Assembly: GCA_964420015.1 (NCBI GenBank)
Contig: CAYQPO010000003.1
Location: 1-63,607 of the forward strand
Source: an uncultured Candidatus Saccharibacteria bacterium
GTDB lineage: Bacteria > Patescibacteriota > Minisyncoccia > Phycocordibacterales > SBAW01
DNA: 63,607 bases
Reading direction: 5' to 3'
In this document: positions 15,459 through 32,111 of the stretch, one piece after another
Layout: every line of letters starts with the position of its first letter
How positions within the stretch are numbered: the stretch's first letter is position 1
Notes under the pieces: model-generated
Database searches by the model: none
The model's input: the letters and a program-made list of their open reading frames with translations, nothing else
Told to the model about the DNA's origin: nothing
Translations under genes and position numbers: made by a program

Positions 15459-15823
15459 ATTTTACGTTGGTCGAGGATGCTCTGCACGAGCTTCAGTTGG
15501 TCGTCGAGACGGCCGACCTCGATGGCTTTGAGGAGTACGCCACACAGGTAGCCGATAGCATTTGCACGTTGGTGCGAGAGCGGCTCCACGCGGATGCGAT
15601 TGATAGTGTCAGCAAGGAGGCCGACGATATCTTCGGTCGTTTTCAGTTCAACGGGTTCCAACGGTTCCGCGTCCTTGCGGGGCTTCGGTGCCAATCCGCC
15701 CTTGAGCACAGCCAGCTCTTTTTCGGCTTGCACGTCGGGGTTATGCGAAAAGCAGTACGGCGACTGGCTCATCGCGTTCGCCCTGCACTGGGTTCCGTCT
15801 GGTTTGATAAATTGACACGTCAT
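15455..15823 (-). CDS. C-x9-C-x10-C-x2-H zinc-finger protein (DUF5763/HGGxSTG-like) with helical C-terminus
   Basis: MTCQFIKPDGTQCRANAMSQSPYCFSH. Confidence 0.7.
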   Translation of the reverse strand: MTCQFIKPDGTQCRANAMSQSPYCFSHNPDVQAEKELAVLKGGLAPKPRKDAEPLEPVELKTTEDIVGLLADTINRIRVEPLSHQRANAIGYLCGVLLKAIEVGRLDDQLKLVQSILDQRKI

Positions 15824-15851
15824 AAGCTTTTGCTTGTAGGGTGGGGGCCGC

Positions 15852-17195
15852 TCAAAACGGAATGTCCGCGGGGTCTATTTCTGGCGGGTTGTAGGCAGTT
15901 GTGGAGACGTGCACATCACTATCGCCACCTTTGATGTCCTCATCAGTGATGCCCAGGCGGTCGCGCCAGTACCCAAGCCGTTCCTCGTTACGCGAGAAAG
16001 AGAGCACATAGCCCTTACTGATGCGTTCGGGCTTGAGCTGGAGCTTGGAGCGCATCACCCAACCAACTTTCCTGGCGGTGATAGTCTCGCCGATTTCTGC
16101 ATCGTTGTTGACCTCGACAGTAATGTTTTTGACCGCAAGACCATCGAGCTGCGTATTCTCGTGGAGGCGGAAGATGGCGAGGATGACCTGCGCTTCCCAT
16201 GACTGGGCGCGGTCAGCAATGAGTTCTTGGTTGTAACGTTTGGCGTGCTCAATAAGAGTAGTTTGGATAGTTTCACTCGGAAGGACTGCAAGGAGAGGAA
16301 TAATAATTTGCTGCATCCGTGGGTGCAATCCCTCGATGCGTTCGTCGTTGAACACGAGAGGCTTGCTGTAATTGCGGAAGCGAAAGGTTAGGAGTTTGTT
16401 GCGAAGCAACAAGGCCTCGGTGCGGAAACTATCATCAAGGCGAATCGGGATGTCTGGGCGCAGTTTGGTGCGACCCATATCTTCAATAAGGAAGCGCGAC
16501 TCAAGGGCTGCGTCGTCGTAATTCTGGCGGGTGGCAATAATTTTTGGAGAGAAAACATCGTAGCTCTTGACCTCAAAGACGCCCTTGCCTTCACTGCGGA
16601 GTACCGCCGTGCCTTTCTGATATCCCGAGTTCAATATCTTCACGAGGTCGTTGCTGAAATCGCTAAAGCGGAAGTCTGCCTCGTCGAGCACCAACGTCCC
16701 GCGCACTTGGTCGAGGATACGAAAAATCGGTGAGGTGGTAGTCGCGCCTGCCGTAAAGATAGGACGATAGCAAATGCTCCCGACGACAGAGAGGAAACGG
16801 CTCTTGCCACTTCCGTAGTCGCCACGCACGCGCAGATACGGCAACTCATTGAGACGGTCGTAGAGCCAAGTCAGAAGGACGTAATGGGCGGCAATTGTTT
16901 CGAACTCGGCTGACACATCGCAACGCTTGTGGATGAATGCTTGTACCTCGGCGAGCAACTCCGCCTCCGTGCCGTATCCAGTAGCCTCGGAAGGCAACAA
17001 TACGACGTTCTTGGCTACCAGGTCACTCTTGGCATCGAGCGGATGTATCTCGACCCCCTCAAGCTCGATTGAGTCTTGGTAATAGGTTTCGCCCGCGTCG
17101 TACAAAGCGAACCGTGTGCGCCGTGTGTCTGGGTTATAGACAGTCTCGGCGAGTGGGAGTTGAAGGGAGGCTTTGCGATTGATTTTCATACGCAT
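15852..17195 (-). CDS. P-loop ATPase, DUF3631-like/primase-helicase-associated protein of mobile elements
   Basis: Conserved LTWLY, Walker A GDYGSGKS, Walker B LVLDEAD, LNSGY, ALESRF. Confidence 0.75.
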   Translation of the reverse strand: MRMKINRKASLQLPLAETVYNPDTRRTRFALYDAGETYYQDSIELEGVEIHPLDAKSDLVAKNVVLLPSEATGYGTEAELLAEVQAFIHKRCDVSAEFETIAAHYVLLTWLYDRLNELPYLRVRGDYGSGKSRFLSVVGSICYRPIFTAGATTTSPIFRILDQVRGTLVLDEADFRFSDFSNDLVKILNSGYQKGTAVLRSEGKGVFEVKSYDVFSPKIIATRQNYDDAALESRFLIEDMGRTKLRPDIPIRLDDSFRTEALLLRNKLLTFRFRNYSKPLVFNDERIEGLHPRMQQIIIPLLAVLPSETIQTTLIEHAKRYNQELIADRAQSWEAQVILAIFRLHENTQLDGLAVKNITVEVNNDAEIGETITARKVGWVMRSKLQLKPERISKGYVLSFSRNEERLGYWRDRLGITDEDIKGGDSDVHVSTTAYNPPEIDPADIPF

Positions 17196-17210
17196 TTGGT
17201 TGGGTTACGG

Positions 17211-17498
17211 CTAATAAATAGTTCGCGCACGATACAGACGCGATTTCAGCGCCCGTCGCGCGGCGGCGAGCTTCAGTGCGGAGACAGTGAGGGTGCCCGC
17301 AAAATAGGCGCTGGATGTCTCCTCAATGCCTTCGCGTTTTTTGAAAATAAAGACGGAGCGCGTGCGGGTTGAATCTATGCTCTCTACTACGAATCCAGCT
17401 GCACACAGTGCTGTGCACTCGTCAAAATCGCTTGAATAAAAATAGTGCCCGTTATCATCGAGCGGGATATAAGTGATGTCGTCGTGCTTCATACTCAT
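17211..17498 (-). CDS. DUF5659-like small DNA-binding protein
   Basis: FYSSD...ALCAAGF...ID...SVFIF pattern; start placed at MSMKHDD. Confidence 0.65.
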   Translation of the reverse strand: MSMKHDDITYIPLDDNGHYFYSSDFDECTALCAAGFVVESIDSTRTRSVFIFKKREGIEETSSAYFAGTLTVSALKLAAARRALKSRLYRARTIY

Positions 17499-17511
17499 TT
17501 TGTCGTTAGCG

Positions 17512-17541
17512 AATAAAAAATGCGGCTTCGACGACCGCATT
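17512..17541 (-). terminator. Intrinsic terminator/attenuator within the element
   Basis: Minus strand AATGCGG-TCGTCGAAG-CCGCATT-TTTTATT. Confidence 0.65.
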
Positions 17542-17570
17542 GAACACCCGCTTTTTATTGAGCTGTGATG

Positions 17571-18506
17571 CTAACGGAAACCCTTAGTGTCTGGACGAAA
17601 CTCCTTCCCAAAAGAGTCCGCAATCATATCCGCGACCCGCTCTACTGCCTTACGTGCAGCGTCGGAAGAAATGCCAAACTGCCTGCCGATTTCCTTGCTT
17701 GTTTTTTCATCAAAATGGACTTGGATTGCTTTTTTGTGCAGACGCTCCAAGCCACGCCATTGTTTTGGCGACATTTTGTCCCGTTTGCGAGCCATTATTG
17801 AGAGGTAGGTACTTTTCTCGTAGTCTTTCTTCAATGTTGGTTTTTTGCTTCGCTTGACGAACTCTTTGAAAATCTGGAGGTCGCGGTCGAATTGTTTTTT
17901 CACCCTCGTTTTTACAACTACTTCTGGCGGCAAATAATGCCGCTGCATATTGGTAAGCATACCCATCGCATCTCGTAATTCTTTCTTACTCAAAGGAGCG
18001 TAAGTCGTGAGAGCGAGCCACTTCGCTGTGCCCTTGCGAGCTTCAGGGTTCATCGTGATTGACCAGTTTCCAGACGGTGCACGCACGACGCCTGTCTCAA
18101 TATATACCTGAAGCCCCTGCAATGGATTATCGGAAATGAAGTGCTCGGGTAATTTATATTTTTCTCCGAGCCGCCTCTTGAGGTAGCCCATTTTATAAAG
18201 CGGTGCAGTACGATACAACTCGTCACGCCTCTCCATGCGCTTTTGAGGCTGTTGGATGGTGAACATTTCCTTCTCCGCCTTGAGAAACTTTGGTGCATCC
18301 ATAATGCGGTCAGTCTCGACGATGAGGTTGTGGTGCCACTTACGGCGGTCTTCGTGGTTAGAAAAGCCATCAGGCGGTATGCCTACTTCCTTACGCACAG
18401 CACGTACATCCTCTTGAAATGAAGGCAAGGCATCTAGCAGCCTGAAACGCACCTCATTTTTGTACTGAATGGGCGCTGCTTGTTTTCTAGCCTTTTTCAT
18501 ATTCAT
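17571..18506 (-). CDS. Hypothetical basic protein with C-terminal HTH
   Basis: 311 aa; TSKEIGRQFGISSDAARKAVER resembles an HTH. Confidence 0.7.
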   Translation of the reverse strand: MNMKKARKQAAPIQYKNEVRFRLLDALPSFQEDVRAVRKEVGIPPDGFSNHEDRRKWHHNLIVETDRIMDAPKFLKAEKEMFTIQQPQKRMERRDELYRTAPLYKMGYLKRRLGEKYKLPEHFISDNPLQGLQVYIETGVVRAPSGNWSITMNPEARKGTAKWLALTTYAPLSKKELRDAMGMLTNMQRHYLPPEVVVKTRVKKQFDRDLQIFKEFVKRSKKPTLKKDYEKSTYLSIMARKRDKMSPKQWRGLERLHKKAIQVHFDEKTSKEIGRQFGISSDAARKAVERVADMIADSFGKEFRPDTKGFR

Positions 18507-18510
18507 TGAA

Positions 18511-18580
18511 GTTCATAATGTGCACAAAGTGCACAGACTCACCCTTGCCAGTGCACGTAATGAACGTCGTGCACATTATA
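18511..18580 (-). promoter_or_regulatory. Promoter/operator array with four GTGCAC palindromes
   Basis: GTGCAC at 18520, 18529, 18551, 18569; inverted repeat ATAATGTGCAC (18515-18525)/GTGCACATTAT (18569-18579); minus-strand TATAAT at 18575-18580. Confidence 0.55.
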
Positions 18581-18609
18581 GGTCGTTTGGCTATTTCGCT
18601 CCTAGCGGC

Positions 18610-19110
18610 CTATTGAATCGAGTCAACGCGGCAGTTGATAAGAGCCTGGGTGCCACCTGCTTTTTCGCCTGTAACCGTTATCGTGTCGCCAGCCACCGTA
18701 TTGGCAAAGTTTTGTTCGCCATTGACGATGCAATACCAACCACTTCCGTCGTTGATAGCGTCTGCATCCCCGCCGAAAATAATGGTTTGTTGGTTGATAC
18801 CCATTACTTTGTTGAAGTTGATGACGCTCGTGCGGACAACACCTGATACAGTCTTTCTGACGAGGCCAGTGTCACCAGTATCTGGCGATGCGGTGTCGCT
18901 TGCAGAAGTTGTGTTGTCTTGGGACGGTTGCGTTTGAGTTGGAGCAGCGTTCTGTTGAACCTCTGGCGCTAGCTGATTCACCGACGCGTCTTGCTGTGCT
19001 TTGTTGAGAGAGGATAGGAGGATAGAACCTCCGACGAGGATAACGGCAGTCCAACCAAGCACTTTCAACCACTTTCGTTTCGGCTTTTGCGGCTCCGAGG
19101 AGCTATTCAT
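18610..19110 (-). CDS. Membrane-anchored OB-fold protein (tRNA_anti-like)
   Basis: N-terminal TM, Q/T/S linker, C-terminal GDTITVTG...LINC. Confidence 0.7.
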   Translation of the reverse strand: MNSSSEPQKPKRKWLKVLGWTAVILVGGSILLSSLNKAQQDASVNQLAPEVQQNAAPTQTQPSQDNTTSASDTASPDTGDTGLVRKTVSGVVRTSVINFNKVMGINQQTIIFGGDADAINDGSGWYCIVNGEQNFANTVAGDTITVTGEKAGGTQALINCRVDSIQ

Positions 19111-19171
19111 ATGTGCTAACTATAGTATGTAGACCCATAGTTAGCAAATACCTACGCTTGCTAGTGTAGGT

Positions 19172-19384
19172 ATGAATAAAAAAATCTTAGAGCAGTTCGG
19201 GAAGCGTGTTCGAGAGGAGAGGGACAGGTTGGGCATCTCCCAAGAGCGTCTTGGACAACTCGCCAAAGTACACCGAACTTACATTGGAATGATTGAGCGA
19301 GCAGAGAAAAACATTACGCTCACGAATATGGAGAAAATTGCTCGGGCACTCGGACGTAAAGTATCCGACTTAGTGGACTTTTAG
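19172..19384 (+). CDS. XRE-family HTH regulator (C-protein-like)
   Basis: FGKRVR..R...GISQERLG....VHRTYIGMIERAEKNITL. Confidence 0.92.
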   Translation: MNKKILEQFGKRVREERDRLGISQERLGQLAKVHRTYIGMIERAEKNITLTNMEKIARALGRKVSDLVDF

Positions 19385-19397
19385 GACTCTGGAGCTT

Positions 19398-20114
19398 TTA
19401 TATACTCGCGAGTCTTATAATAACGTACAAAGTAGAGACGCCAGCGATTGTCATTACTGTAGTCCAACGCACAGGATGGGAATGGTAGCTTTCTGGGATA
19501 AGGTCACTTGCGCCAATGTAGAGAAAGAAACCAGAGAAAAGTGCCAGTAGGAGTCCGAGCTTATCTTCTGGCAAAACGAAAAAGAATGTCGAGAGCACAC
19601 CGACAACAGGAGCGATTGCATCAACGAGTAGCCACCGAAACGCCTTCCTCTTATCTCCTTTGTTTTTGAGTACAAGATTGACCGTATTGATTCCGTCTGA
19701 AAAATCGTGGGTGAGGACGGCAGCAGCCACAATTGCGCCAACGGTCGCTGAGACTTGAAATGCCAACCCTATACCTACACCATCAAGAAAGCTATGAAAG
19801 GAGAGACTTCCTGCGCCAGCATTTCCACGGCGTTCATCGCCGCCATCGTGCATAGTATGACCGTGCAAAAGTATGAATCGGTCGAGAACCAGATAAGTTG
19901 AGAAGCCGATTACCAGTACCGTAAGTACTGTTAGGTCGGAATACGCTTTTCCAGCCAAATCTAATGCTTCTGGTAGGAGGTCGAAAAAAGCAACTGCAAG
20001 AATCGCCCCAGCACTAAACCCAAGAATCAAATGCAACCTATCTTTTAGGTAGAGTGCAAATGAACCGCCGATGAGTGTCGAAAAGAATGTTGCTATCGTG
20101 ATAAGGACGACCAT
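19398..20114 (-). CDS. ZIP-family zinc/metal transporter
   Basis: GFSAGAIL..AFFDLLPEA, FHSFLDG, THDFSDG, GFFLYI...DLIPE. Confidence 0.9.
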   Translation of the reverse strand: MVVLITIATFFSTLIGGSFALYLKDRLHLILGFSAGAILAVAFFDLLPEALDLAGKAYSDLTVLTVLVIGFSTYLVLDRFILLHGHTMHDGGDERRGNAGAGSLSFHSFLDGVGIGLAFQVSATVGAIVAAAVLTHDFSDGINTVNLVLKNKGDKRKAFRWLLVDAIAPVVGVLSTFFFVLPEDKLGLLLALFSGFFLYIGASDLIPESYHSHPVRWTTVMTIAGVSTLYVIIRLASI

Positions 20115-20118
20115 ATTT

Positions 20119-20556
20119 TTATGCTCTCGGACAGCTTGCGCAGAGTCCGAAAAACTCTAAGTTATGCGAATAAATGCTTTTGAATCGTCTTGAAGCTTGC
20201 GTCATCTGCCCGTGCAGTTTATCGACGGAACATTTTTCAATGTCCTCAACTGCGCCGCAGTCGGTGCAGATGATGTGGTGGTGATGCGGTCGTTCGGGTG
20301 TGTACTCGAAATGTGCAGTGCCAGTATTGAGGTCAACGCGCCTAACGACATGTGCGTCCGCGAGGTCACTCAGAGTTCTATAAAGAGTTGTTTGATTAGG
20401 TAAATCCTCTTTCCACGACCCCAATATACGTTGAATTGAAAGAGGCTTTTCAGCTCTATATAGCAATTTCAGGAGTTTTATTCTTGGAGTTGTAATGCGA
20501 AACCCTTTAGCACGAAGCTGCTCTCGGATAAATACCTCTGTGTCTTTAGTGTCCAT
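20119..20556 (-). CDS. Fur/Zur-family transcriptional repressor
   Basis: RITTPR, TLYRTL, HHHHIICTDCG, GLCASC. Confidence 0.93.
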   Translation of the reverse strand: MDTKDTEVFIREQLRAKGFRITTPRIKLLKLLYRAEKPLSIQRILGSWKEDLPNQTTLYRTLSDLADAHVVRRVDLNTGTAHFEYTPERPHHHHIICTDCGAVEDIEKCSVDKLHGQMTQASRRFKSIYSHNLEFFGLCASCPRA

Positions 20557-20600
20557 TCCTTCAATATATACTAATGCAAATTATTTGCAATAGCAAAAAC

Positions 20601-21734
20601 CTAGTGGTGATGTTGGTGAGCTTCCTGTTTTGCCATTTCTTTGCCGTGCAGCATATACGAAGCAATGAGCGTGGTGATTGGAACCCCTAAAATAAGACCA
20701 ATACTGCCAATGAGAATGCGGACGATTTCTGTAGAAAATATCTCGTTGTTTATCATAAATGCGACCCCTGTAGTGGAGCTTTGAATTAGCAAGAGAATAG
20801 GCAAGGAAGCCCCCACATAGGCGATTGCGAGCGTATTCACCAATGCCCCTATGTGCTCTCTCCCTATCCGAATTGCCCTTTTGTATATCTCTGGTCGTGT
20901 GAGGTGTTTGCCGATGCTCAATAATTCTTCAACGGCTATAGCTTGCCCGATAGCAATATCGTATAGCACACCGAGCAAACCAATCATAATGCCCCCAAAT
21001 AAAAGGCCGACCATATCTATCTTCCCCCGCGTATCGAAGTTTAGGTAAACATTTTCTTCAGTCGTATAACCTGAAAGATGGGCGGCGTGCACCGTCCACC
21101 ACGCACCGAGACCTGTGATGACCACGGTAAGAATCATTCCCAGTACAGCCGCTGTAGTAGTGCGGTTGAAGCCGTGCGTAATATACGAACCCACAATTAT
21201 TATGAGAGAAGATACCCCAATACTTACAAGAATTGCTGAGTAGCCGTGATAAATGCCTGGTATGAGTAAATAAAAAATAAGTACAAAGCTTCCGCACAAA
21301 CTTGCGAGACCCCGAACACCCTGCCATCCACCGAAAATAAAAATGAGAGCGATAAAGACAAAGGCTAGTATTCCAAGAACATTTAGTCGATACGGGTCAG
21401 ACACCGACCAAAAATCTGTACCGTCGAGCTGATTGGTTTCGTGACGGGCGTAGAATATATCGCCGACCTGAAGTTGAATATAATCGTTATCAAATGTCAC
21501 TACTTTTCCTTTATCAACACCATCAAGTATCTCGGTTTTTAGTGTCTCAGTTTGTGTTGGCGTGTCTGTGCCAGGCACGGTTGTTGTATGTTGGTTTTGA
21601 ACTTCAAGCACACGCGCCTTTTCAAAGTCCTGCGTATCAGCAACAACATTTGTCTGCGCGTGAGAGACGAGCGGAAAGATGATAGAAAAGACTAACAAAA
21701 TAAAAAAATGTGGAAGTTTGAATCGCAGCATCAC
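20601..21734 (-). CDS. YibE/F-family membrane protein with His-rich tail
   Basis: G.LYDIAI.Q...V.EL, GREHIGALVNTLAIAYVGASLP, EIVRILIGSIG; ends HQHHH. Confidence 0.88.
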   Translation of the reverse strand: MMLRFKLPHFFILLVFSIIFPLVSHAQTNVVADTQDFEKARVLEVQNQHTTTVPGTDTPTQTETLKTEILDGVDKGKVVTFDNDYIQLQVGDIFYARHETNQLDGTDFWSVSDPYRLNVLGILAFVFIALIFIFGGWQGVRGLASLCGSFVLIFYLLIPGIYHGYSAILVSIGVSSLIIIVGSYITHGFNRTTTAAVLGMILTVVITGLGAWWTVHAAHLSGYTTEENVYLNFDTRGKIDMVGLLFGGIMIGLLGVLYDIAIGQAIAVEELLSIGKHLTRPEIYKRAIRIGREHIGALVNTLAIAYVGASLPILLLIQSSTTGVAFMINNEIFSTEIVRILIGSIGLILGVPITTLIASYMLHGKEMAKQEAHQHHH

Positions 21735-21817
21735 GTTTTAGTATACTCTCCACAAACAGGGATTTCTAATTGCCCTATATAGGGCAAAATAGCTACAAAT
21801 CGGCTACAATGCTGATT

Positions 21818-22684
21818 ATGGCGAGACGATATAGAAACTACAGACGTGCGGACTCTGATGGCGACATTGTAAATATCGTCGCCTCAATTTTTGGCCTCTA
21901 CGCGATGTATCTCCTGCTGCTCTATTTCACCAATCGTGCAGAGTTTTGGAGGTGGACAGTTTATGGTGCTCTGGCAGTCATAGCGATTTTTGCTCTTGCT
22001 CTCGCGTTTGTAAAAGTGAAAGCTGCGACGAAAGAGAGGCATCTTCAAAAGCTGCTTGCGACTGTACGGCAGGCTGGAATGGAAGACCAGCTCAAAAACT
22101 TTTTCATCCGCTTCGGTATGGGACAGGACAGGAGCAAGAACGCCTGGGAGTATCGCAACTACAAGATTGATTGGAAGCGTTTTCATGAGATGGAGGATAT
22201 CTTGCGCGGCAAGGGCGTGAGGCTCGAAGACAACAAAGACCTTGCTCTTTTGTTGAGACACTACATTGATGAGCGAGAGTTCGGCGTTACTTCCAACAGC
22301 ATCCAGGCGAGCACAAAGAGTTTCAAGGAACTGAACGGCCCTGCATTTGAATCGCTGCTGCTGCGTCTCTACGAGAAGATGGGTTACGCTGTGCAGCACT
22401 CGGGCAAGGTGGGCGACCAGGGCGGCGATTTGGTTGCAACGAAAGGGGCGGAGCGGCTATTGATTCAGGCGAAATGCTACCAGAATATGTCCGTGGGAAA
22501 CGACGCTGTGCAGCAGGCGGTTGCCGCGAAGACGTACTACGACTGCAACAAAGCAGCGGTTGTAACGACCAGCGAGTTTACGCGCGAGGCGGTTGAACTT
22601 GCGAAGTCCAACAACGTTGAGCTGATAGCCAAAACGAGGTTGCAGCAACTCCTACTCGACAACTTATCCGAGAGCTGGGCTTAG
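21818..22684 (+). CDS. Mrr-like restriction endonuclease with two N-terminal TM helices
   Basis: FESLL..LY.KMGY...GDQGGDL...IQAKCY...V...AVQ...A...Y...A.VVT.S.FT..A (PD-QxK Mrr_cat pattern). Start placed after a TACAAT box. Confidence 0.9.
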   Translation: MARRYRNYRRADSDGDIVNIVASIFGLYAMYLLLLYFTNRAEFWRWTVYGALAVIAIFALALAFVKVKAATKERHLQKLLATVRQAGMEDQLKNFFIRFGMGQDRSKNAWEYRNYKIDWKRFHEMEDILRGKGVRLEDNKDLALLLRHYIDEREFGVTSNSIQASTKSFKELNGPAFESLLLRLYEKMGYAVQHSGKVGDQGGDLVATKGAERLLIQAKCYQNMSVGNDAVQQAVAAKTYYDCNKAAVVTTSEFTREAVELAKSNNVELIAKTRLQQLLLDNLSESWA

Positions 22685-22721
22685 GCACAAGAGTTGCAAT
22701 CGTCACTGAAGCCGCAGATAC

Positions 22722-24719
22722 TTGGCTTTGATGAGAACAGACACCCCAAAAATAGACACGGGGCACATTTGTATCGCCCACAAGGAGAAAACGACGCTTG
22801 CTGCGGTTGTTTCCTCGTACTTTGCCGACGAGGGCTACTACCTGCCGCTCTTTTTGTTTCCGAACGTCGGAAGCAACTCAAGTTCCGAAGAAGACGACTT
22901 TCAAGAGGATGGTTATATCGCCAGGCATATCGGCGAGCGGGCGGCGGTGTTGACCAACAACGCGATGGCCAGGATGGATGAGTGCAAAATGGTAATTCTC
23001 GTCGGCCTGTCCGAACACCAAAAGTCCTACCTTCGAATACCACGCAAAATCCCCATCATTGAGGTTGATGATATGAGCCAGGTGGAATCGAAGCTGCTAC
23101 CAATAAGTGAGAAAAAAGAGGTGTTGGAGTGCCGCAGCGACGACGCGCTCAATGCTTTATACATTGCGAAGAAAACTGGGAAGCGGCTCGTTATAAACGA
23201 AGCAGCAGCGATTGAGGTGCCAGCGCTCGAAGACGGTAAAGGTATCATTGTGCTAGAAAAGGGTGAGCAGGCGCTCGCTATCGTCGCGGTGAACTATGCC
23301 TACGCCGTGGACGCAAACTTGCTGCTCGTCGAAGGCTTCAACAAAGAGGATAGGCACGGTGTCGAAAGAAACATCCAAAAGTGGCGCGATAATGGAAGCC
23401 ACAACCAGCTCCAAAAGTGCCTCAACAAGGTCTCGCACCGCATCGGTTCGGTTGCCTTCGACCGATTCAAATACGCAACATTTTTTACAGTCGGCCTGCC
23501 GTACTCGCTCGGGATAAAGAATGTCATCCCGTGCAGCTATGTACAGTTGGCGTTGAGTCCCGACCTGTTTATCGTCAACTCAATACTCTTTGAGAGCGCC
23601 GAGCGTTTCAATTCTGCCGTCGTATTCTCGCCAGGTTTCTTCCAAGACGAGGAGACCAAAAGTGTCTTTGACCTATTCGTCAAAAACAACTATTACGTGC
23701 GCCCACTGGTCAACAATCATGCGACCGTGCGAAATCTGGATTTTCACGCGCAGCACTTCCCGTATGACATTTTGCATATCTGTACGCACGGTGGCGAAGT
23801 TGACGGGTATGCTGTGACAGAAACTTATCGCGATAGGAATGGTGCAGAACACACTGTTGAGTACGATGAGGTGGTAGGCTTTGCGCCTGTCCCTGGCAAA
23901 GACCTGATTGAAGTGCATAGGAAACTCTTTTTCCGAAAGTTTGATGGCTTCGCTTGGATGAGCCCAGAACTGAAAAAACAGAAATATCCAAATTACGTCT
24001 TTGAGGATATGAGAAAGGAGATTTTTCAGAAGGAGGATGTAAAGCCTACTCCTCGAAAGAGCAAGGACAAAATACCGACATCTTGTGCCATTGCGTGCAT
24101 AGATAGTATCCACCAGGGGATGTTCCAAATACTCGCGTCGCACAGCTCGCCGCTCATATTCAACAATGCCTGCTGGTCTTGGTCGGAGGTTTCGACCTTC
24201 TTCCTCTCTAACGGGGCTAGAGGTTACATCGGTACGCTATGGGACATTGAAAACTCGGCAGCGGTTGCGGGCGCAAATGCTTTTTACGGCAACCTGTTCG
24301 ATAAAGGCGTGCTCAACGCATTCTTCGAGAGCATAAAAGCCGTGCGAGGCACCGATGCGGAGAATATCTATGTGTACTGGGGCTTACACTTTAGTACCCT
24401 CGACCGAGGGACGAGCTACGAAGAGAGCAGAAGCAGGGTTTTCAGAGAATTGATTCGCTCTTTTTTCGCCTGGCTAGAAAAGGTGAAGACAATCAAAAAT
24501 CAAACGATAAAGAAAAACTCCATCGAAGTGGTCAGGAGCATCCACACTGAAATCCTCAACAACTTCAAACCGCGTGACCTCGAAAAGCTCGACGCCGAAA
24601 TAAGGCGGCGAATGGCCGAGCTACCACAGCAAACACGGTCATCCAGCGAGGGCGACCGAGAGCTGCTCCAAGACATAGCGTCAATCGAGCCGCCTGTTGA
24701 ATATCGAAAGGCGGATTAG
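22722..24719 (+). CDS. Caspase-hemoglobinase-fold (CHAT/C25-like) cysteine protease with uncharacterised N-terminal region
   Basis: DILHICTHGG (His), PLIFNNACWS (Cys), GARGYIGTLWDIE...AFY CHAT-type C-terminal motif. Confidence 0.8.
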   Translation: MALMRTDTPKIDTGHICIAHKEKTTLAAVVSSYFADEGYYLPLFLFPNVGSNSSSEEDDFQEDGYIARHIGERAAVLTNNAMARMDECKMVILVGLSEHQKSYLRIPRKIPIIEVDDMSQVESKLLPISEKKEVLECRSDDALNALYIAKKTGKRLVINEAAAIEVPALEDGKGIIVLEKGEQALAIVAVNYAYAVDANLLLVEGFNKEDRHGVERNIQKWRDNGSHNQLQKCLNKVSHRIGSVAFDRFKYATFFTVGLPYSLGIKNVIPCSYVQLALSPDLFIVNSILFESAERFNSAVVFSPGFFQDEETKSVFDLFVKNNYYVRPLVNNHATVRNLDFHAQHFPYDILHICTHGGEVDGYAVTETYRDRNGAEHTVEYDEVVGFAPVPGKDLIEVHRKLFFRKFDGFAWMSPELKKQKYPNYVFEDMRKEIFQKEDVKPTPRKSKDKIPTSCAIACIDSIHQGMFQILASHSSPLIFNNACWSWSEVSTFFLSNGARGYIGTLWDIENSAAVAGANAFYGNLFDKGVLNAFFESIKAVRGTDAENIYVYWGLHFSTLDRGTSYEESRSRVFRELIRSFFAWLEKVKTIKNQTIKKNSIEVVRSIHTEILNNFKPRDLEKLDAEIRRRMAELPQQTRSSSEGDRELLQDIASIEPPVEYRKAD

Positions 24720-24809
24720 TTCGTAGGTACTAGCGCCCGTAATTCTTGCAAGCTCAAGCCGATGGCGGCTCGGTATTGTCCGAGTTCGGAAAGCCACGTA
24801 AACTGGTCA

Positions 24810-25184
24810 CTAGTTTCCGGGGATTACAAATTGCGCAACGAGGCCGATGACCGCGCCGATCGAGAGGACCCCGCCGATGAGTGTGATGCGTTTGACCGTG
24901 CCAACATTATTGATATGGAGGAAATAGGCTAGTATCAAAAGGAGAAAAAAGTAGAGCGAACTCATAAAATACCAATCGAACACTTGCAGCACTGCGATCA
25001 GAGTTTTAGAAATATGCGGATCGTTGAAGACGCGCGTCTGGAGCCAAAAGTGGATCGCATCGGTCGGGTCGGGTGCCAGCTCGCCGAGCGCCGCGCCGAG
25101 CAAAAAGATCCCCACCGGTGTTTTGAGAAACTTTTTCTCCGGTGTTAAATACCACCCCTTTGCGTGCTCGATTAGTCTTGCCAT
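24810..25184 (-). CDS. Hypothetical membrane protein
   Basis: 124 aa with three hydrophobic segments; its stop codon lies at the inferred element boundary. Confidence 0.7.
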   Translation of the reverse strand: MARLIEHAKGWYLTPEKKFLKTPVGIFLLGAALGELAPDPTDAIHFWLQTRVFNDPHISKTLIAVLQVFDWYFMSSLYFFLLLILAYFLHINNVGTVKRITLIGGVLSIGAVIGLVAQFVIPGN

Positions 25185-25229
25185 GTCGCTATTGTACAGC
25201 CAAGCCTGACCCCGCTGTAGGCTTTAGAG

Positions 25230-26210
25230 CTACTGCTGTTCGTGATAGGTATAGACCAGTGTAGAGATATCGCGGATTTCTTGGGCGAGCGTCTCAAAGT
25301 TGCTCCCGCGTGTCATCACACACAAAAGGTATGCGTCGTCGGTGTAGACGATGCCGCAGTCGTGCAGCTCTACCCCCAAGGGCGCCCCGGCGGGGCTCAC
25401 AAACTTCCGTTCGCCAAATTTTTGGGCGACCATGGTCGAACTCGCCACACCCCCACGCAGCCCATAGGGGAACGAAGCTTTACTCATGAGCTCGAGTGCC
25501 TTTTGAGAATTGGTGCGACTTAAATACGTGGCGTTATAGAAAATGCGCAAAAAGTTAGAGTACGTTTGAGGCGACATGATGTCACCGAGACTTGTGGGCA
25601 ATTGTATGTCGAGGCTTAGATAAATCTTGTTGAGAGCTTCTTGGGGGATCGAGTCGAGGTCGAGTAGTCTGGCGGCGTTATTGTCTGAGTACTCGATCAT
25701 GTAGGTGAGCAGCTCCTCGATGCTGTAGGAGTGACCAGCCTGGATACTTGCCGTGGGCTGGTAGTATTCAGCCTTATTGTCGTCGAAGCTGCCGTCGTAA
25801 TAAATCTCTTTTTGTAAAAAGCCCGGGTGCTCGTCTGCATAGCGCAGCGTTGCTGCAAGCGTGGGCACTTTAAGCATGCTCGCAGGCGAAAACTCTTTTT
25901 CTTGGTTAACTCCGGCCCAGGAGCCACGCACGTTGGGGCCACCCAGGCTCAAATAATAGACCCCAACCTCTTGCTCTTTTGCCCCTGCAATATATTGTGC
26001 GAGCTTTTTGCTGAGAGTTGTGTCCTCTTTGCGCGACTCGGTGACGTTGTTGTTGCACAGAAGCACCGGATTAATAAGCGAGTAGCCCTTTTCGCGCAAG
26101 ACCGTGTTTTGTGCCAGGTTGGGCGCGCTCGTGCGGCCTGCAAACACCCCCATGCCAAAAGCCGCGACAAGCCCCAGCGCTACAAGACCACGGGCTTGGA
26201 GCGTACTCAT
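25230..26210 (-). CDS. Class A beta-lactamase-like serine hydrolase
   Basis: ASMLK (SxxK), SDN, KFG at the KTG position, HDCGIVY; N-terminal TM. Confidence 0.88.
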   Translation of the reverse strand: MSTLQARGLVALGLVAAFGMGVFAGRTSAPNLAQNTVLREKGYSLINPVLLCNNNVTESRKEDTTLSKKLAQYIAGAKEQEVGVYYLSLGGPNVRGSWAGVNQEKEFSPASMLKVPTLAATLRYADEHPGFLQKEIYYDGSFDDNKAEYYQPTASIQAGHSYSIEELLTYMIEYSDNNAARLLDLDSIPQEALNKIYLSLDIQLPTSLGDIMSPQTYSNFLRIFYNATYLSRTNSQKALELMSKASFPYGLRGGVASSTMVAQKFGERKFVSPAGAPLGVELHDCGIVYTDDAYLLCVMTRGSNFETLAQEIRDISTLVYTYHEQQ

Positions 26211-27145
26211 GTGGTGTGTAAACCGTCCGCTTTGAGTACGTAATACAGATCTTCGAGCGCTTTGATTGCATCGCCCGCGGCAATGTTGTTTTGGTGGTAC
26301 AGGCCGTCTGAGCAGTCGCCCGCAGCCCAGATGCCCATTTGAGAGCTGCGCTGTGTTTTAGGGTCTACCTTAATTTTGCCCATCTCGTCCATCTCCACTA
26401 AGCCTCTTGCAAACTCGGTGCCCGGCAGCATGCCTATTTCGACAAACACTCCTGTCACAGGCAACGTGCGCATTGTATCGGTAGTCAAGTCTTTGACCGC
26501 AAGTGCGGTAACAAACTTGTCACCCAACACCTCAGTGGGCTCAGCGCTAGTGATGGTGTGCATGTTGGGGTGGGAGAGTACCGCGTCGACCGTTGCTTTG
26601 TCGGCGCGCACAAAGTCTGGGTGACGATGGATAAGCGTGACCGATTTGCAGTAGGCGAGCAGCTGTGCAGCAGTCTCGAACCCCGCATTGCCACCGCCGA
26701 CGACCGCTACATCTTGCCCGGCAAAGAGCGGGCCGTCGCAAGAGGCGCAGTAGGTGAGCCCACGGTGCTCAAATTTTTCAGCGTTTTTTGCGGAGAGTTT
26801 TTTGCGTATGCCACCGGTAGTGATGAGGACTGCTTGAGCCATATAATTTGTGGCGGTAGTTTGGACAGAAAAGCTCCCTTGGTTTTTGGTGATGCCCGTT
26901 GCGCGCTCGCCCAGTTTGAGCTCAAGCACGTCACCTGCATATTCGCGCAGATGGCTCTCGAGCTGTTTGGCCATCTGCATGCCAGAGATGTGCGGCGTGC
27001 CGATCCAGTTTTGTACATCTAGGCTGTCGGTCGATTGGCCACCAATGGTCTCGGCAATCAGGATGGTTTTGAGGCGCTTGCGCGCGGCGTAGACTCCCGC
27101 GGCGGCCCCGGCGGGGCCGCCGCCTATGATTGCCAAATCATACAT
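26207..27145 (-). CDS. trxB: Thioredoxin-disulfide reductase
   Basis: GGGPAG, YCASCDG, VGGGNAG, AAGD. Confidence 0.9.
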   Translation of the reverse strand: MYDLAIIGGGPAGAAAGVYAARKRLKTILIAETIGGQSTDSLDVQNWIGTPHISGMQMAKQLESHLREYAGDVLELKLGERATGITKNQGSFSVQTTATNYMAQAVLITTGGIRKKLSAKNAEKFEHRGLTYCASCDGPLFAGQDVAVVGGGNAGFETAAQLLAYCKSVTLIHRHPDFVRADKATVDAVLSHPNMHTITSAEPTEVLGDKFVTALAVKDLTTDTMRTLPVTGVFVEIGMLPGTEFARGLVEMDEMGKIKVDPKTQRSSQMGIWAAGDCSDGLYHQNNIAAGDAIKALEDLYYVLKADGLHTT

Positions 27146-27170
27146 AACTGTATTCTAACGCACTGTCCCC

Positions 27171-27199
27171 TTGCTGCAAAAGTGGGGCAGAGTTACTGT
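27171..27199 (+). promoter_or_regulatory. Candidate sigma70 promoter for dnaA
   Basis: TTGCTG-N17-TACTGT; AAGGAG SD precedes the ATG at 27310. Confidence 0.4.
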
Positions 27200-27309
27200 G
27201 GTGTGCGGAAGGCCTTAGAAACTACTCGCGTTTTTGTGTTCGGCCTAGCCCCATAAAAACACCTGACTGGAAGTGGTTTAACCCAAACAGACGACAAGGA
27301 GTTTTGCAG

Positions 27310-28782
27310 ATGACAAGTCCCGACCAAGAATGTTGGCACCGAGTCAAGGAGCGTCTCCGAGCTGAAGTGGGCGAGGACATCTTCGTGTCCTGGTTCAAGA
27401 GCATGGAGTTGGACAAAGTTACCAACAGTGCTGGACCCGAAGGCAAGAACTACGTGGCGAGCGTCACGGTCCCTACGCGCTTTCTCAAGAGCTGGATCCA
27501 ATCGCATTACATCGGGCGGGTGTTGGCATGCTGGCAGCAAGAACACCCCGACGTCATCAAGGTTGAGATCTTGGTGCGTTCGGCGGTTATTCGCACCATC
27601 CCGCCTAAGGCCCAGGCTCCCGAAGTCTCTGACACCGTGCGGGATGCTCGGCTGCCTCGGCTCGACATTGGCGATTTGCGCGCCGCCTACGCGTCGGTTT
27701 CCAGCGGCCATGACGCACTCGGCGGCTCACCGCTCGATCTGCGGCTGACCTTTGAGAGCTTCGTGGTTGGGCGCTCCAACACGCTCGCCCATGCGGCCGC
27801 CAAGCAGGTGGCCTCTGGGAAGCGCGGAGAGCCGGTGATGTTCAACCCGCTCTACATCCACAGCGGAGTGGGCTTAGGCAAGACGCACCTGCTCCAGGCG
27901 ATCACTTGGGCAGGCAACAGCAAGACCGAGGTGCGTGACGAAGATCGGCGCAAGGTGCTCTACCTCACTGCCGAGAAGTTCATGTTCGGCTTCGTCTCGG
28001 CACTGCGTACACAGACTCACCTCGCGTTCAAAGACGCGCTGCGCGGCATCGACGTCCTGGTCATCGACGACCTGCAGTTTTTAGGCGGGAAGGCGACTCA
28101 GAGCGAGTTCTGCCACACGCTCAATGCACTCATCGACGCTGGCCGCCAGGTGGTGCTGGCAGCCGACCGCTCCCCGCAAGACCTCGACCAACTCGACGAC
28201 CGCGTTCGTTCGCGACTCGCCCGGGGCCTCGTGGTGGAGTTGAGCCTGCACAACGAGGAACTCCGGTTGGAGATCCTCAAGATGCGGGTTGAGGCAGCCA
28301 AGCACTATCACCCCCGGTTTGAGGTGCCGCCGCAAGTGCTCACCTTCATCTCGAGGGCGGTTACGCACAACGGGCGTGATCTCGAGGGTGCGGTCAATCG
28401 TCTGCTCGCCCACAGCAAACTCACCGGGCAGGAGGTGACGATGGAGTTGGCCGAGCGTGAGATGCGTGATCTCATTCGGCCCGCAGAGCCCAAGCGGGTA
28501 AAGATCGAGGACATTCAGCGGATCGTCGGTCGGCAGTACAACATCAGTCGTGCCGACTTGCTTAGCTCCCGCCGAACCGCCAACGTGGTGCGGCCTCGGC
28601 AGGTGGCGATGTACTTGGCCAAGACGCTCACCCTGCGCTCGCTGCCCGAAATTGGGCGACGCTTCGGCGGGCGCGACCACACCACGGTCTTGCACGCGGT
28701 GCGCAAGATCGAGGGGTTGGTCGGCCAAGACACAATGCTCGCCGACGAGATCGAGGTCCTCAAGCGGCAACTGCAGGAGTGA
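27310..28782 (+). CDS. dnaA: Chromosomal replication initiator DnaA, alphaproteobacterial-type, out of normal dnaA-dnaN context
   Basis: [37 protein letters not shown]-like [32 protein letters not shown]. Confidence 0.97.
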
Positions 28783-28802
28783 TGGTTCCTGCCACAAACG
28801 AC

Positions 28803-28832
28803 AAAGGGCCCCGCGATTGCGGGGCCCTTTTT
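28803..28832. terminator. Bidirectional terminator between dnaA and ftsZ
   Basis: AAAGGGCCCCGC-GATT-GCGGGGCCCTTTTT. Confidence 0.85.
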
Positions 28833-28839
28833 GTCTGTC

Positions 28840-30024
28840 CTATTTAATCTTCGGGCGGCGCAAGAAGCTTGGTACCGCGCCCCACTCATCTTCCTCTTCC
28901 TCAGCGGGCTTCGGCATTGCCACTTTAACCGGCTCAGCAGCTTTTTCCTCTTTTTCTTTAGAACTCTCCTTGGCGGGGGAATTAAAGATCTTACCCACCA
29001 GCGGCATCTCGTCTTCTTTCTTAGTATCGCGGAAGCCAAACAGTGGCGTCCCCCGCGGCGCAATGCCAGCGGCGGGGAAACCGGTTGCAATCACGGTCAG
29101 GCGCACCTCACCTTTTTTGAGTTTCTCGTCGCGTACCGCGCCGAAGATGATTTTGGCGTTCGGGTCGACCGACTCGGTGATAATTTTGGCTGCCTCGTGC
29201 ACCTCGAGCATGCCGAGGTCGTCCTGGCCAGCAATTGCAAACAAAACGCCCTTGGCACCATTAATCGAGAGCTCAAGTAGGGGAGATGAGACGGCTGCTT
29301 TGGCCGCAACCGCAGCGCGGTTTTCACCGCTCGCAATGCCGATGCCCATAAGTGCACTCCCCGCGTTCTCCATGACGGCGCGGATGTCGGCAAAGTCGAC
29401 GTTGATGATGCCGGGGTGGGTAATAAGGTCTGAGATGCCCTCGACCGCCTGTTTGAGCACATCATCGCACATGGCGAAGGCGTGTTTGAGTGTGGTGTCT
29501 TTTTGGACGGTGGCCAAGAGGCGGTCGTTGGGGATCACGATGAGCGCGTCTACCTCTTTGCGCAGCTCCTCTAGGCCCACTTCGGCCAGGCGCATGCGCT
29601 GTGCGCCCTCAAAAGAGAAGGGCTTGGTCACGACACCCACGGTGAGCGCGCCCATTTCCTTAGCGGTGCGCGCCACCACCGGTGCTGCACCGGTCCCTGT
29701 GCCGCCGCCCATGCCGCAGGCGACAAACACCATGTCGGAGCCCTTCATTGCCTGTTGAATTTCTTCCTTCGTCTCTTCTGAGGCACGCTTGCCGATCTCT
29801 GGGTTCATGCCTGCACCCAACCCGCGCGTGAGATTTTTACCAATATGGATCTTCTTTTTTGCTTGCGAGTGATGGAGATCCTGCGCGTCGGTGTTGATGG
29901 TGACAAAATCGACACCGCGCACCTTCTCTTCGACCATGTGATTAATGGCATTCTTACCCGATCCGCCCACGCCCACGACTCGGATCCGTGCAAACGCTTC
30001 TACCTCGGGCTGTACTTGCGGCAT
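28840..30024 (-). CDS. ftsZ: Cell division protein FtsZ
   Basis: GGGTGTG tubulin signature, INVDFAD, C-terminal VPSFLRR. Confidence 0.98.
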
Positions 30025-30124
30025 GTGAATAATTTTATGTTGCTAATTGCTCACGTAGTGTAAACCCCTATTTGCAGGCTTGGCAAGCTCGTGCAAATTC
30101 ACGCCGAGTCTTCGAGCTGCTTAT

Positions 30125-30162
30125 ACAAAAAAAGCCTGCTACTGCAGGCTTTTTCTCTTTTT
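30125..30162. terminator. Terminator between ftsA and ftsZ
   Basis: AAAAAAAGCCTGC-TACT-GCAGGCTTTTT. Confidence 0.7.
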
Positions 30163-30199
30163 CGCACAAACCCTTGATTTCTTATCCTTTTGTCTCCAA

Positions 30200-31375
30200 T
30201 TATGGCAAAAACTTTTTGAACCAACGCCAGAGTTTTGAAAAGAGCTCGCCAAACGAGCCCATCGCCTCGCCTTCGAGCGCTTCACCCTCGCTAAAACCCC
30301 ACACCGTGAGCCCATAGGCGACCGCCCAGCTCGAGTCGCGCAGCTGCATGCGCTGCGGGCCCTCCGCGAGTGCTGCCGAGCGTGACGGGAGCTTCAATGC
30401 AGCTTTAGCTATCTCGGGCATCGAGGAGAGCGCCGAGCCGCCACCGGTCAAAATAATCCCCGCGGGCAAGAGCTCGTTCTTGCCTATTCTTTTCAAATGT
30501 CCCTCGACTAACTTAAACATATCCTGGGTGCGTCGTGTGACGATCTGCTCTATGGTGCGTTTGGGGTAGGGGGCCCCAAGTACGGCACCTTGTTTGAGTT
30601 GCTCGGCCTCCTCTGGCGAGATGCGCAAGCCCAAAGCGAGATCGTTGGTGATGTCGTTTGAACCAATGGGGAACACTTTTATAGAAATCGGCATGCCGTC
30701 TTCGAACACAATTATCGAGAGTGTCTCGGAGCCGATATTGGCAAGCACACAGCCCACGCGCTTTTGCATTTTAGAGAGCGCAATAAATGACGCGGCCAGT
30801 GGTGCGGCAACTATATCCTCGACCTCGAAGCCTGCCTCCTCGGTCGCGGTGACCAGGTCGTTTACGTGGCGCTCTAGGCAAGTAATAAACAGTGTCTCGA
30901 CGCCAACGCGGGCTCCACTCATCCCTACAGGGTTTTTGCCGAGCACTTTCATCCCGTCGAGCGTAAAGCGCAAAGGAATGGTGTGGATGATCTTGCGGTT
31001 TTGCTTGGCTGTTTGGGAGAGCGTCTCCTCGCTCACCTTGATGGCCCGCGGGATATCGCGTGTGCTCACCTGCGAGTCCCCGCGCTCCACCACGACCTCG
31101 CCGCGGGAAAAGCTCTCCTCGAGCCCAATACCCCCGACACCAAGGTAGACCTTTTTAACTTTGACGCGAGCGGCTTTGCTTGCTTGCAAAACCGCCGCGG
31201 CGATCGAGCGCGACACCTCGGGAATAGACACAATATAGCCTTGGCGCATGCCGCGCGATTCTGCATAGCCGGTACCCAAAATGCGAGGGAGCTGTCGTGG
31301 GTCCTCTGAGCTTTCAGCGATGACAACCTTAACGTGATACGTGCCTATGTCGACGCCGGTAACGATCGTGGCCAT
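30200..31375 (-). CDS. ftsA: Cell division protein FtsA
   Basis: GVDIGT, SRGMRQG.I, GSNDITNDLA..L..S..EAEQLK, ILTGGGS, AVAYGL. Confidence 0.95.
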   Translation of the reverse strand: MATIVTGVDIGTYHVKVVIAESSEDPRQLPRILGTGYAESRGMRQGYIVSIPEVSRSIAAAVLQASKAARVKVKKVYLGVGGIGLEESFSRGEVVVERGDSQVSTRDIPRAIKVSEETLSQTAKQNRKIIHTIPLRFTLDGMKVLGKNPVGMSGARVGVETLFITCLERHVNDLVTATEEAGFEVEDIVAAPLAASFIALSKMQKRVGCVLANIGSETLSIIVFEDGMPISIKVFPIGSNDITNDLALGLRISPEEAEQLKQGAVLGAPYPKRTIEQIVTRRTQDMFKLVEGHLKRIGKNELLPAGIILTGGGSALSSMPEIAKAALKLPSRSAALAEGPQRMQLRDSSWAVAYGLTVWGFSEGEALEGEAMGSFGELFSKLWRWFKKFLP

Positions 31376-31410
31376 TGAGGCCTATTGTAGCACTTGTGTA
31401 CAGCTTCGGG

Positions 31411-31445
31411 CACACAAAAAGCCGTTTATCCACGGCTTTTTTGTG
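31411..31445. terminator. Terminator downstream of rpsU
   Basis: CACAAAAAGCCGT-TTATCC-ACGGCTTTTTTGTG. Confidence 0.75.
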
Positions 31446-31457
31446 AGGTATCGATTG

Positions 31458-31706
31458 TTAGCGGCGGCCGCGTTTGGGCTTCTCCACCATCTTGCCGAGT
31501 TTGATGAGCTCAGTGATTTCGTCACGGCGCGCGATGCGCTTAAGGGCGCTCTTGCGAGTGACCGTTTTGGACTTAGGCCGACTAAAGTAACGCCCGGCGC
31601 GCACCTGCGGGATCACCTGGGCGCCCTGCACGCGCTTAGAAAAGCGGCGCAAGAGATTGAGTCCCGATTCGCCGTCGTTTTTGGTTACTTCTGCATTGGT
31701 TGCCAT
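31458..31706 (-). CDS. rpsU: 30S ribosomal protein bS21-like
   Basis: V...GES..LLRRF..RV......R...YF..PKS....R..AL pattern; start trimmed to MATNAEV. Confidence 0.8.
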   Translation of the reverse strand: MATNAEVTKNDGESGLNLLRRFSKRVQGAQVIPQVRAGRYFSRPKSKTVTRKSALKRIARRDEITELIKLGKMVEKPKRGRR

Positions 31707-31739
31707 AAGCCAGAAGAATATAGCATATATTCTTCTGGC

Positions 31740-31771
31740 AGCCAATAGCCACTAGCTTTTAGCCACTAGGG
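31740..31771. repeat. Heptamer array, left
   Basis: AGCCAA TAGCCAC TAGCTTT TAGCCAC TAGGG; TAGCCACTAG at 31746 and 31760. Confidence 0.8.
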
Positions 31772-32111
31772 AGGACAGCATCTTGTTTAGCATCCTCATA
31801 ACTTCGTCCAATAGTTTGTTGATTTGAGCATCTTGGCCGTTTTTGATAAATCCGAGGTTCTTGGCAATAAGCAAATGAGTTTCTAGTTCTGCTCCCGAAC
31901 CGAAAGCAATTCTTACGAATTGAGTATACTCGGCTCTGTGTTTGCGGGCGTATCCCTCTGCTAGATTTGCAGGGATCGAAACTGCCGCCCGCCGCATTTG
32001 GCTGGTGAGCCCAAACTGTTCGCTTTTAGGAAATTGCTCCGAGACTTTGTAAATCTCAGAAACAAGTTCCACGCCTTTCTGCCAGACGATTAAGTCTTTA
32101 TAAGATTGCAT
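31752..32111 (-). CDS. Four-helix-bundle protein (23S rRNA IVP / bAvd-like family)
   Basis: SYKDLIVWQK....V..IY.....FPK.E.FGLTSQMRRAAVSIPANLAEG...F..IAFGS..ELETHL. Confidence 0.93.
   Translation of the reverse strand: MQSYKDLIVWQKGVELVSEIYKVSEQFPKSEQFGLTSQMRRAAVSIPANLAEGYARKHRAEYTQFVRIAFGSGAELETHLLIAKNLGFIKNGQDAQINKLLDEVMRMLNKMLSSLVAKS

Follow-up and report, generated by a model that had tools for sequence, protein, structure and literature searches.

Replication initiators are core genes that seldom cross phyla, and the small genomes of the Candidate Phyla Radiation (CPR) shed genes that go unused. The Chlamydiae carry two dnaA genes per genome, which are old paralogues that arose within the lineage, and in many bacteria DnaA also regulates transcription. 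Here we describe a dnaA gene that lies alone between trxB and ftsZ on a 63,607-nucleotide (63.6-kb) stretch of contig CAYQPO010000003.1 from an uncultured bacterium (the window, by which we mean the whole stretch analysed). Comparison with alphaproteobacterial DnaA, which set the clade, identifies the gene as a Hyphomicrobiales/Rhizobiales-like alphaproteobacterial xenologue, and comparison of its neighbours places the chromosome that holds it in Candidatus Adlerbacteria / Paceibacterota, within the CPR. By family the protein is an ordinary DnaA; what is unusual is that a dnaA from another phylum has been kept, renewed from different donors at one site, and shrunk in sister lineages.

The second dnaA of the Chlamydiae resembles this case in that a small genome has more than one DnaA-family protein, one of them outside the dnaA-dnaN context, the second copy being only presumed here. 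The chlamydial copies are, however, old paralogues, whereas the window dnaA is a cross-phylum xenologue with allele turnover and several donors. Hda/HdaA has a related AAA+ module and lacks domains I and IV; identity with it was ruled out, since the window DnaA has both of these domains and reaches 75.5 bits against TIGR03420, whose cut-off is 194.8. With the chromosomal DnaA of Hyphomicrobiales type (P0002/P0003, P0005, P0077 and P0116 among our database matches) the window protein shares the four-domain layout, 84% identity over aligned columns, and the ATPase and DnaA-box motifs. Those genes lie in an rpsT-dnaA-dnaN-recF-gyrB context, whereas the window dnaA stands by itself between CPR ftsZ and trxB; it differs further in that its codons are partly ameliorated, its constraint is somewhat relaxed, and its domain I contains an insertion of 8 residues. 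Genes for replication, recombination, and repair have been transferred into Paceibacteria, for example gyrB from Bacteroidota, in a report that is silent on DnaA, Alphaproteobacteria, and Adlerbacteria (PMC12455944). In the literature we found no report of a foreign dnaA in Adlerbacteria or CPR, nor a paper linking Adlerbacteria with DnaA.

The open reading frame (ORF) on the + strand has its earliest in-frame start at TTG 27304 and, on our reading of the sequence, its likely start at ATG 27310. The coding sequence (27310-28782, +) thus specifies 490 residues plus a stop codon at 28780-28782, which divide approximately into domain I (residues 1-90), the domain II linker (91-140), the AAA+ domain III (141-390), and domain IV, the helix-turn-helix that recognizes DnaA boxes (391-490). 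Pfam assigns DnaA_N (PF11638) to residues 8-79 (E 7.9e-17), Bac_DnaA (PF00308) to residues 144-312 (E 2.8e-55), and Bac_DnaA_C (PF08299) to residues 401-469 (E 2.6e-30), and the NCBIfam DnaA equivalog TIGR00362 is matched at 469 bits against a cut-off of 343.9. Walker A (GVGLGKTH), Walker B, box VII (RVRSRL), and sensor II (NGRDLEG) are all present in an alignment to Bacillus subtilis DnaA (8BTG), as is the domain IV DnaA signature (RPRQ...GGRDHTTV) in alignments to 8BTG and to Escherichia coli domain IV (1J1V). With the catalytic and DNA-contact motifs intact, ATP binding and hydrolysis, DnaA-box binding, and origin unwinding are predicted activities of the protein. A first-pass annotation made from the letters alone had described a full-length DnaA with domains I-IV and Walker motifs between trxB and ftsZ; the Pfam, TIGR00362, and 8BTG comparisons bear this out, and the peptides that it quoted all occur in the translation.

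Two length variations were seen in the alignments. The 8-residue insertion, in the region of residues 35-49 of domain I (window 27412-27456), is unique to the window copy among the aligned CPR and alphaproteobacterial copies. The copies at two related CPR loci, L004 (2316-2414, -) and L007 (10468-10605, -), continue beyond the usual ...LKRQLxE stop with C-terminal extensions of about 30-45 residues, unlike the window DnaA, which ends at the canonical position.

A search space of 5.8 billion proteins yielded 119 listed non-self matches, all 77-82% identical to the window DnaA; two of the listed matches bear organism names, "Rhizobiales bacterium" (P0116) and "Pseudomonadota bacterium". An rpsT-dnaA-dnaN-recF(-gyrB) context surrounds each of the four matches that were looked up, P0002, P0005, and P0077 among them; the contigs of two of the four measure 298 kb and 473 kb. 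These matches uphold the earlier assignment of the sequence to a Hyphomicrobiales type. Because Sinorhizobium DnaA is 48% and Paracoccus DnaA 43% identical in a search of a plasmid collection, the donor is a particular Hyphomicrobiales lineage outside the Rhizobiaceae. Nucleotide similarity to alphaproteobacterial dnaA is 75-77% and is confined to the coding part (27310-28778). The GC content of dnaA is 0.62, against about 0.54 around it, and its GC content at third codon positions is 0.79, compared with 0.57-0.70 in resident genes and 0.84-0.89 in donor-type genes; the codon composition is partly ameliorated.

The surrounding chromosome is of a different kind. The flanking resident genes, recognized by Pfam, are a thioredoxin-reductase-like gene (trxB, 26207-27145, -) on one side and an Adlerbacteria-type ftsZ (28840-30024, -) on the other, followed by ftsA (30200-31375, -). 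FtsZ matches proteins of Candidatus Adlerbacteria / Paceibacterota at identities of up to 94%, and every named match comes from that group. The remainder of the window is ordinary CPR chromosome, with gyrA, infB, clpB, parB, tsaD, an aminoacyl-tRNA synthetase, pilins of a type IV secretion system (T4SS), a VirD4-like ATPase, and 11 tRNAs.

In about 40 Paceibacteria loci (from Adlerbacteria, Zambryskibacteria, Taylorbacteria, and others) trxB comes directly after ftsZ, with a gap of 9-116 bp. The gap in the nearest relatives with an empty site, L169 and L088, measures 48-51 bp and consists of a terminator hairpin and, after it, the -10 box of trxB. Occupied loci retain both, the hairpin next to ftsZ and the -10 box next to trxB, and between the two they carry dnaA together with about 160 bp that precede it. 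The gene is a single-gene insertion, found in one small subclade, and it runs antisense in the interval from the resident ftsZ terminator to the trxB promoter.

The locally raised GC content of dnaA (0.62 against about 0.54) might suggest that alphaproteobacterial and CPR reads had been joined in a chimera or that the bin was contaminated, but the probability of either is practically nil. Logan contig L176 was assembled separately, from run SRR12313477, and matches window 18734-32030 with 100% identity over 13,297 bp that run across both junctions and take in a Zip transporter gene, trxB, dnaA, ftsZ, and ftsA. The order ftsA, ftsZ, antisense dnaA, trxB is repeated in L004 (ERZ1760248), L005 (ERZ534009, a 113-kb contig), L006 (SRR6670123), L007 (GCA_040384425.1), and L020 (a GTDB species representative), and with L093 and L168 this gives seven related contigs from elsewhere, from at least six other samples, that have a dnaA-derived gene at the site. 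The same junctions thus stand in independent assemblies, and a nucleotide identity of 75-77% to real alphaproteobacterial dnaA is too low for cross-assembly. Together, the identity of L176 and the orthologous junctions rule out an assembly chimera or bin contamination.

The insert carries signals for its own expression upstream. A Shine-Dalgarno sequence, AAGGAG (27296-27301, +), precedes the ATG by 8 nt, and a candidate promoter lies at 27171-27199 (+), with a -35 hexamer TTGCTG (27171-27176), a 17-nt spacer, and a -10 hexamer TACTGT (27194-27199). This candidate scores under the threshold of the promoter scan; its hexamers are kept in position as TTGnnn-17-TAnnGT at four orthologous CPR loci (the window, L004, L005, and L007), and for this conserved motif we infer a promoter function. 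It overlaps the divergent trxB promoter found by the scan on the minus strand (TTTGCA 27180-27175, TAGAAT 27157-27152). The 164-bp spacer between the trxB and dnaA starts (27146-27309, +) is homologous among the dnaA-carrying CPR loci, namely the window, L004, L005, and L007, and has no clear similarity to the upstream regions of alphaproteobacterial dnaA genes. Downstream, where dnaA and ftsZ converge, a GC-rich hairpin with a 12-bp stem (28803-28830) lies between them. An equivalent hairpin comes after ftsZ both at the occupied sites of L004 and L005 and at the empty sites of L169 and L088; because the place is the same at the empty sites, the hairpin is the resident ftsZ terminator and lies outside the cassette, and it now serves both genes. 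Of the expression signals first ascribed to dnaA as its own, the Shine-Dalgarno sequence and the promoter candidate are conserved, but the terminator belongs to ftsZ.

Mobile-element cargo would be expected to show flanking direct or inverted repeats, or an adjoining integrase or transposase. Around the insert there are only short repeats at chance level, and no integrase or transposase adjoins it. A search of IMG/VR gave no close relative of the window DnaA; matches in the plasmid collection are less than 60% identical, the best among the matches listed being on chromosome-sized replicons; and phage matches are distant, apart from a domain IV-only protein of a Bradyrhizobium prophage. Natural competence has been demonstrated in cultivated Patescibacteria (PMC10633639), and repeated replacement of dnaA by DNA from another phylum is consistent with it.

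Phylogeny and alignment together show that the CPR copies stem from at least two alphaproteobacterial sublineages and suggest that the allele was replaced at least once. DnaA trees were built by neighbour-joining with simple distance corrections and 100 bootstraps. Monophyly of the CPR dnaA genes was recovered in 0 of 100 replicates; L007 grouped with P0077/P0047/P0048 in 98, and the window copy and L004 grouped with the alphaproteobacterial P0002/P0003 in 97. Over aligned columns the window copy is 84% and L004 89% identical to P0002/P0003, and L007 is 90% identical to the P0077 group; P0002 and P0077 are themselves 88% identical. An FKSMELDGLD-type motif is common to the window copy, L004, P0002, and P0003, WLRVKEKL...FARMDLERIEVNTAHLSV is identical between L007 and the P0077 group, and a third N-terminal form (type C) is common to L005 and L093. 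Of the alignment columns, 398 are conserved to at least 90% across 119 alphaproteobacterial sequences; at these, nearly every change in a CPR copy is private (15-35 per copy), and only one is common to all four CPR copies. A single acquisition that founded a monophyletic CPR clade is ruled out by the bootstraps and by how few derived residues the copies share.

The tree of the flanking genes (FtsZ+FtsA+TrxB) reads ((window, L007) 85%, L004) 97%, and because it pairs the window with L007, the allele in L007 seems to have taken the place of one of the window and L004 type. The most parsimonious account of the sequences would be that the site was colonised once and that recombination with other alphaproteobacterial DNA later overwrote the coding sequence. 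Residues 1-50 of L007 are 100% identical to P0077, for which a very recent transfer or a chimera was considered. Both are ruled out by a nucleotide identity of 77.6% between the two genes and by third positions of which only about half agree (~0.5) among identical amino acids; the import into L007 is for the same reasons old and no assembly artefact. Apparent frameshifts in L007 proved to be runs of 10 N.

Once in place, the gene has been under selection. By the method of Nei and Gojobori, the ratio of nonsynonymous to synonymous substitutions (dN/dS) between the window dnaA and its nearest alphaproteobacterial gene is 0.13 at a dS of 0.98, with 0.20 in domain I, 0.10 in domain II, 0.15 in domain III, and 0.035 in domain IV. 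Comparisons between CPR copies give 0.16-0.22 and those between alphaproteobacteria 0.07-0.13, and the constraint is mildly relaxed relative to the alphaproteobacteria (0.15 vs 0.10 in domain III and 0.035 vs 0.005 in domain IV). Three full-length CPR copies have stayed open through about one synonymous change per site, from which it follows that dnaA is functional. Purifying selection has been long-lasting and has acted over the whole gene, most strongly in domain IV, and the dN/dS check suggested at first pass thus came out, at 0.10-0.22, on the side of a maintained gene.

These values bear on the idea that DNA of a neighbour or host entered a competent CPR cell, settled between genes at a site that tolerates insertion, and has been decaying there without function. 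The patchy presence of the gene, the truncated and empty alleles of close relatives, and a search for DnaA-box targets that gave no result would all fit such a passenger. Three independent full-length copies with an open frame and a dN/dS of 0.10-0.22 at a dS of about 1, a conserved Shine-Dalgarno sequence and promoter, and deletions that kept the frame and so retained ORFs argue the other way, and we rate this idea below every other account of a genuine insertion.

The truncated alleles show which parts of the gene can be lost. At L093 (2463-3254, -) a single in-frame ORF of 264 residues comprises domain I, the linker, and domain IV, without the AAA+ domain, and at L168 (7263-7712, -) an in-frame ORF of 149 residues comprises domain IV only. 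Both have an insertion of 17-19 residues after VRKI and cluster together in the host tree; the DNA-contact residues are kept in L093, and several are changed in L168 (R to W in RPRQ; GGRDHT to GGRHHS). L169, an empty site, groups with L005 at 72%, and the clade has L088, likewise empty, as its sister. Stand-alone domain IV proteins are known from elsewhere (NCBIfam PRK06030), and one of them, WAX24401 (L177:3791-4294, OP596614.1), is a 167-residue "hypothetical protein" of Bradyrhizobium phage ppBeUSDA76-2, a prophage of Bradyrhizobium elkanii; its C-terminal half consists of a DnaA domain IV with 58% identity to that of the window. Such proteins resemble the CPR mini-proteins of L168 and L093 in being small and built on the DnaA-box helix-turn-helix. 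The window gene differs from WAX24401 in being full-length, and the phage protein shares only 45-56% identity with the CPR mini-proteins. Because the two mini-proteins share the VRKI insertion and L093 has the type C N-terminus, they derive from the full-length xenologue.

Lineages that have lost the AAA+ domain (L093), that keep domain IV alone (L168), or whose site is empty (L169 and L088) must own another initiator. The locus is, to judge from these alleles, dispensable as an initiator at least in the truncated and empty lineages, and the DnaA-box-binding domain is the part that persists longest. This counts against a xenologous displacement, in which the alphaproteobacterial dnaA would have replaced the native CPR gene as sole initiator, with oriC elsewhere on the chromosome. 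In favour of such a displacement, the gene is full-length with every motif intact, purifying selection is strong in all domains, as for an essential gene, and no other dnaA was found in the 63.6-kb window or, for any of 170 related loci, in the 10 kb around ftsZ. The truncated and empty alleles occur among close relatives, however, neither dnaN nor a DnaA-box cluster adjoins the gene, and the dN/dS values given above for domains III and IV are somewhat relaxed relative to the alphaproteobacteria, so that we consider displacement possible but unlikely.

The neighbourhood of the gene is not that of an origin. Pfam on 46 ORFs and tblastn detected no second dnaA, dnaN, recF, or rpmH in the window, and there is no cluster of DnaA boxes in it (14 matches with at most one mismatch, against 8.4 +/- 2.7 expected); the dnaA flanks contain 0 matches. 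An oriC-type neighbourhood of rpmH/dnaN/recF/gyrB and clustered DnaA boxes is thus missing at the window dnaA, as the first-pass annotation had noted for dnaN, rpmH, and the boxes, a result that concerns the initiator role and not family membership. One DnaA box with one mismatch, the TTATCCACG site at window 31426-31434, lies about 50-95 bp upstream of ftsA and has equivalents in L005, L169, L088, and L168. It is kept both with and without a foreign dnaA and is therefore uninformative as a target; its conservation may reflect that of a coding sequence or a site for the resident DnaA.

We favour, by a modest balance of probability, the reading that the xenologous DnaA acts within the CPR cell in an accessory role, in which it would bind DnaA boxes and modulate initiation or transcription, and it is the sister lineages with truncated or empty alleles that lead us to prefer it. 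Domain IV would bind DnaA boxes and domain III would drive ATP-dependent oligomerisation, with DnaA-box binding as the core selected activity. Its part would be to supplement the resident initiator or to modulate it, or else to serve as a transcription factor of the DnaA type; it would not be the sole initiator of the cell. Paceibacteria normally carry dnaA-dnaN, often near T4SS genes (PMC12102498). With tblastn, no further dnaA was found within 10 kb of ftsZ in the 170 related loci, where the xenologue was the only one, and dnaA was absent from the VirD4 neighbourhood that was inspected in one relative.

Several points weigh against this account of the locus and its history. No native dnaA or dnaN occurs in the readable 63.6 kb of the genome, and because only this 63.6 kb was read, the second initiator is an inference. 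DnaA boxes are not enriched near dnaA or across the window, and the search for them gave no target for the proposed protein. The node that puts the empty-site L169 inside the clade has only 72% support, and the host tree consists of the three genes that flank the insert, which may themselves recombine. As for the donors, the DnaA trees rest on neighbour-joining with simple distances, the donor signal lies chiefly in residues 1-145 (bootstraps 100 and 98), residues 146-490 are poorly resolved, and L007 contains four runs of 10 N. Independent insertions at one spot may also have occurred in place of a single insertion with later replacement.

The first-pass annotation had proposed two functions, a second initiator or regulator and interference with a host. 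On the second of these, a host-matched DnaA, or in some lineages its DNA-binding domain alone, would be delivered to a Hyphomicrobiales host and disturb initiation or DnaA-dependent transcription there; allele replacement would then follow host switches. One locus does hold alleles from at least two alphaproteobacterial lineages, domain IV is retained in the truncated forms, and the donor-specific residues of domain I in L007 are 98% conserved over 50 codons in which third-position identity is about 0.5. The stand-alone domain IV protein of the Bradyrhizobium prophage indicates that such proteins are in use among mobile elements of that host group, and the window holds T4SS genes. Yet DnaA has no secretion signal or sign of export, the window copy is least donor-like in domain I (71-79% identity and the 8-residue insertion), and ordinary structural constraint explains the retained donor residues equally well. 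A role directed at the host is accordingly very unlikely in our view, and we give just as little credence to its extension, in which the subclade would keep a host-matched DnaA or domain as a tool against Hyphomicrobiales hosts and renew the allele from the lineage currently exploited. The accessory role within the CPR cell remains the reading that we prefer.

Other features of the window lie apart from the dnaA insertion. A probable integrated element spans 12742-24719, beside tRNA-Ser and tRNA-Glu, where the GC content drops to 0.44-0.51. It includes a large serine recombinase (12899-14614), at an end overlapping tRNA-Glu, several ORFs without a Pfam match, an Mrr-type nuclease (21770-22684), and a 665-residue protein (22722-24719) with a weak match to a CHAT domain. 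L004 and L005 carry dnaA without the element genes, which marks the element off from the dnaA insertion. T4SS parts are scattered over the window: a VirD4/TraG-like ATPase (168-3167, -) with DUF87 and T4SS-DNA_transf matches, which measures 999 residues as an ORF and 930 in the database gene call, and two proteins with pilin domains (44569-45051, + and 56847-58346, +); no relaxase was seen among them. A 119-residue ORF (31752-32111, -) presumably resembles the four-helix-bundle "23S rRNA intervening sequence" protein.

Overall, the observation made at first pass was confirmed and its interpretation held in part: the origin, the host chromosome, and the single-gene nature of the insertion were substantiated, whereas the terminator proved to be resident and the insertion is not private to one genome. 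The survey of related CPR genomes that had been suggested found it to recur across a subclade, with at least two donor lineages. The donor alphaproteobacteria are probably regular neighbours or hosts of these CPR bacteria, and the occurrence of different-donor and cut-down versions at one spot suggests a long association with them. The foreign dnaA is on this account a candidate marker of the bacteria that live with uncultured Adlerbacteria, and for most CPR the identity of the host is a long-standing gap. The natural series from full-length protein to domains I and IV, to domain IV only, to absence indicates which DnaA activity is under selection. Should the xenologue after all be the sole initiator, the locus would be a rare example of dnaA displaced by a xenologue; and if it were a mimic, the locus would be a molecular record of host identity as well as an effector that tampers with host replication or with cell-cycle transcription under DnaA control.

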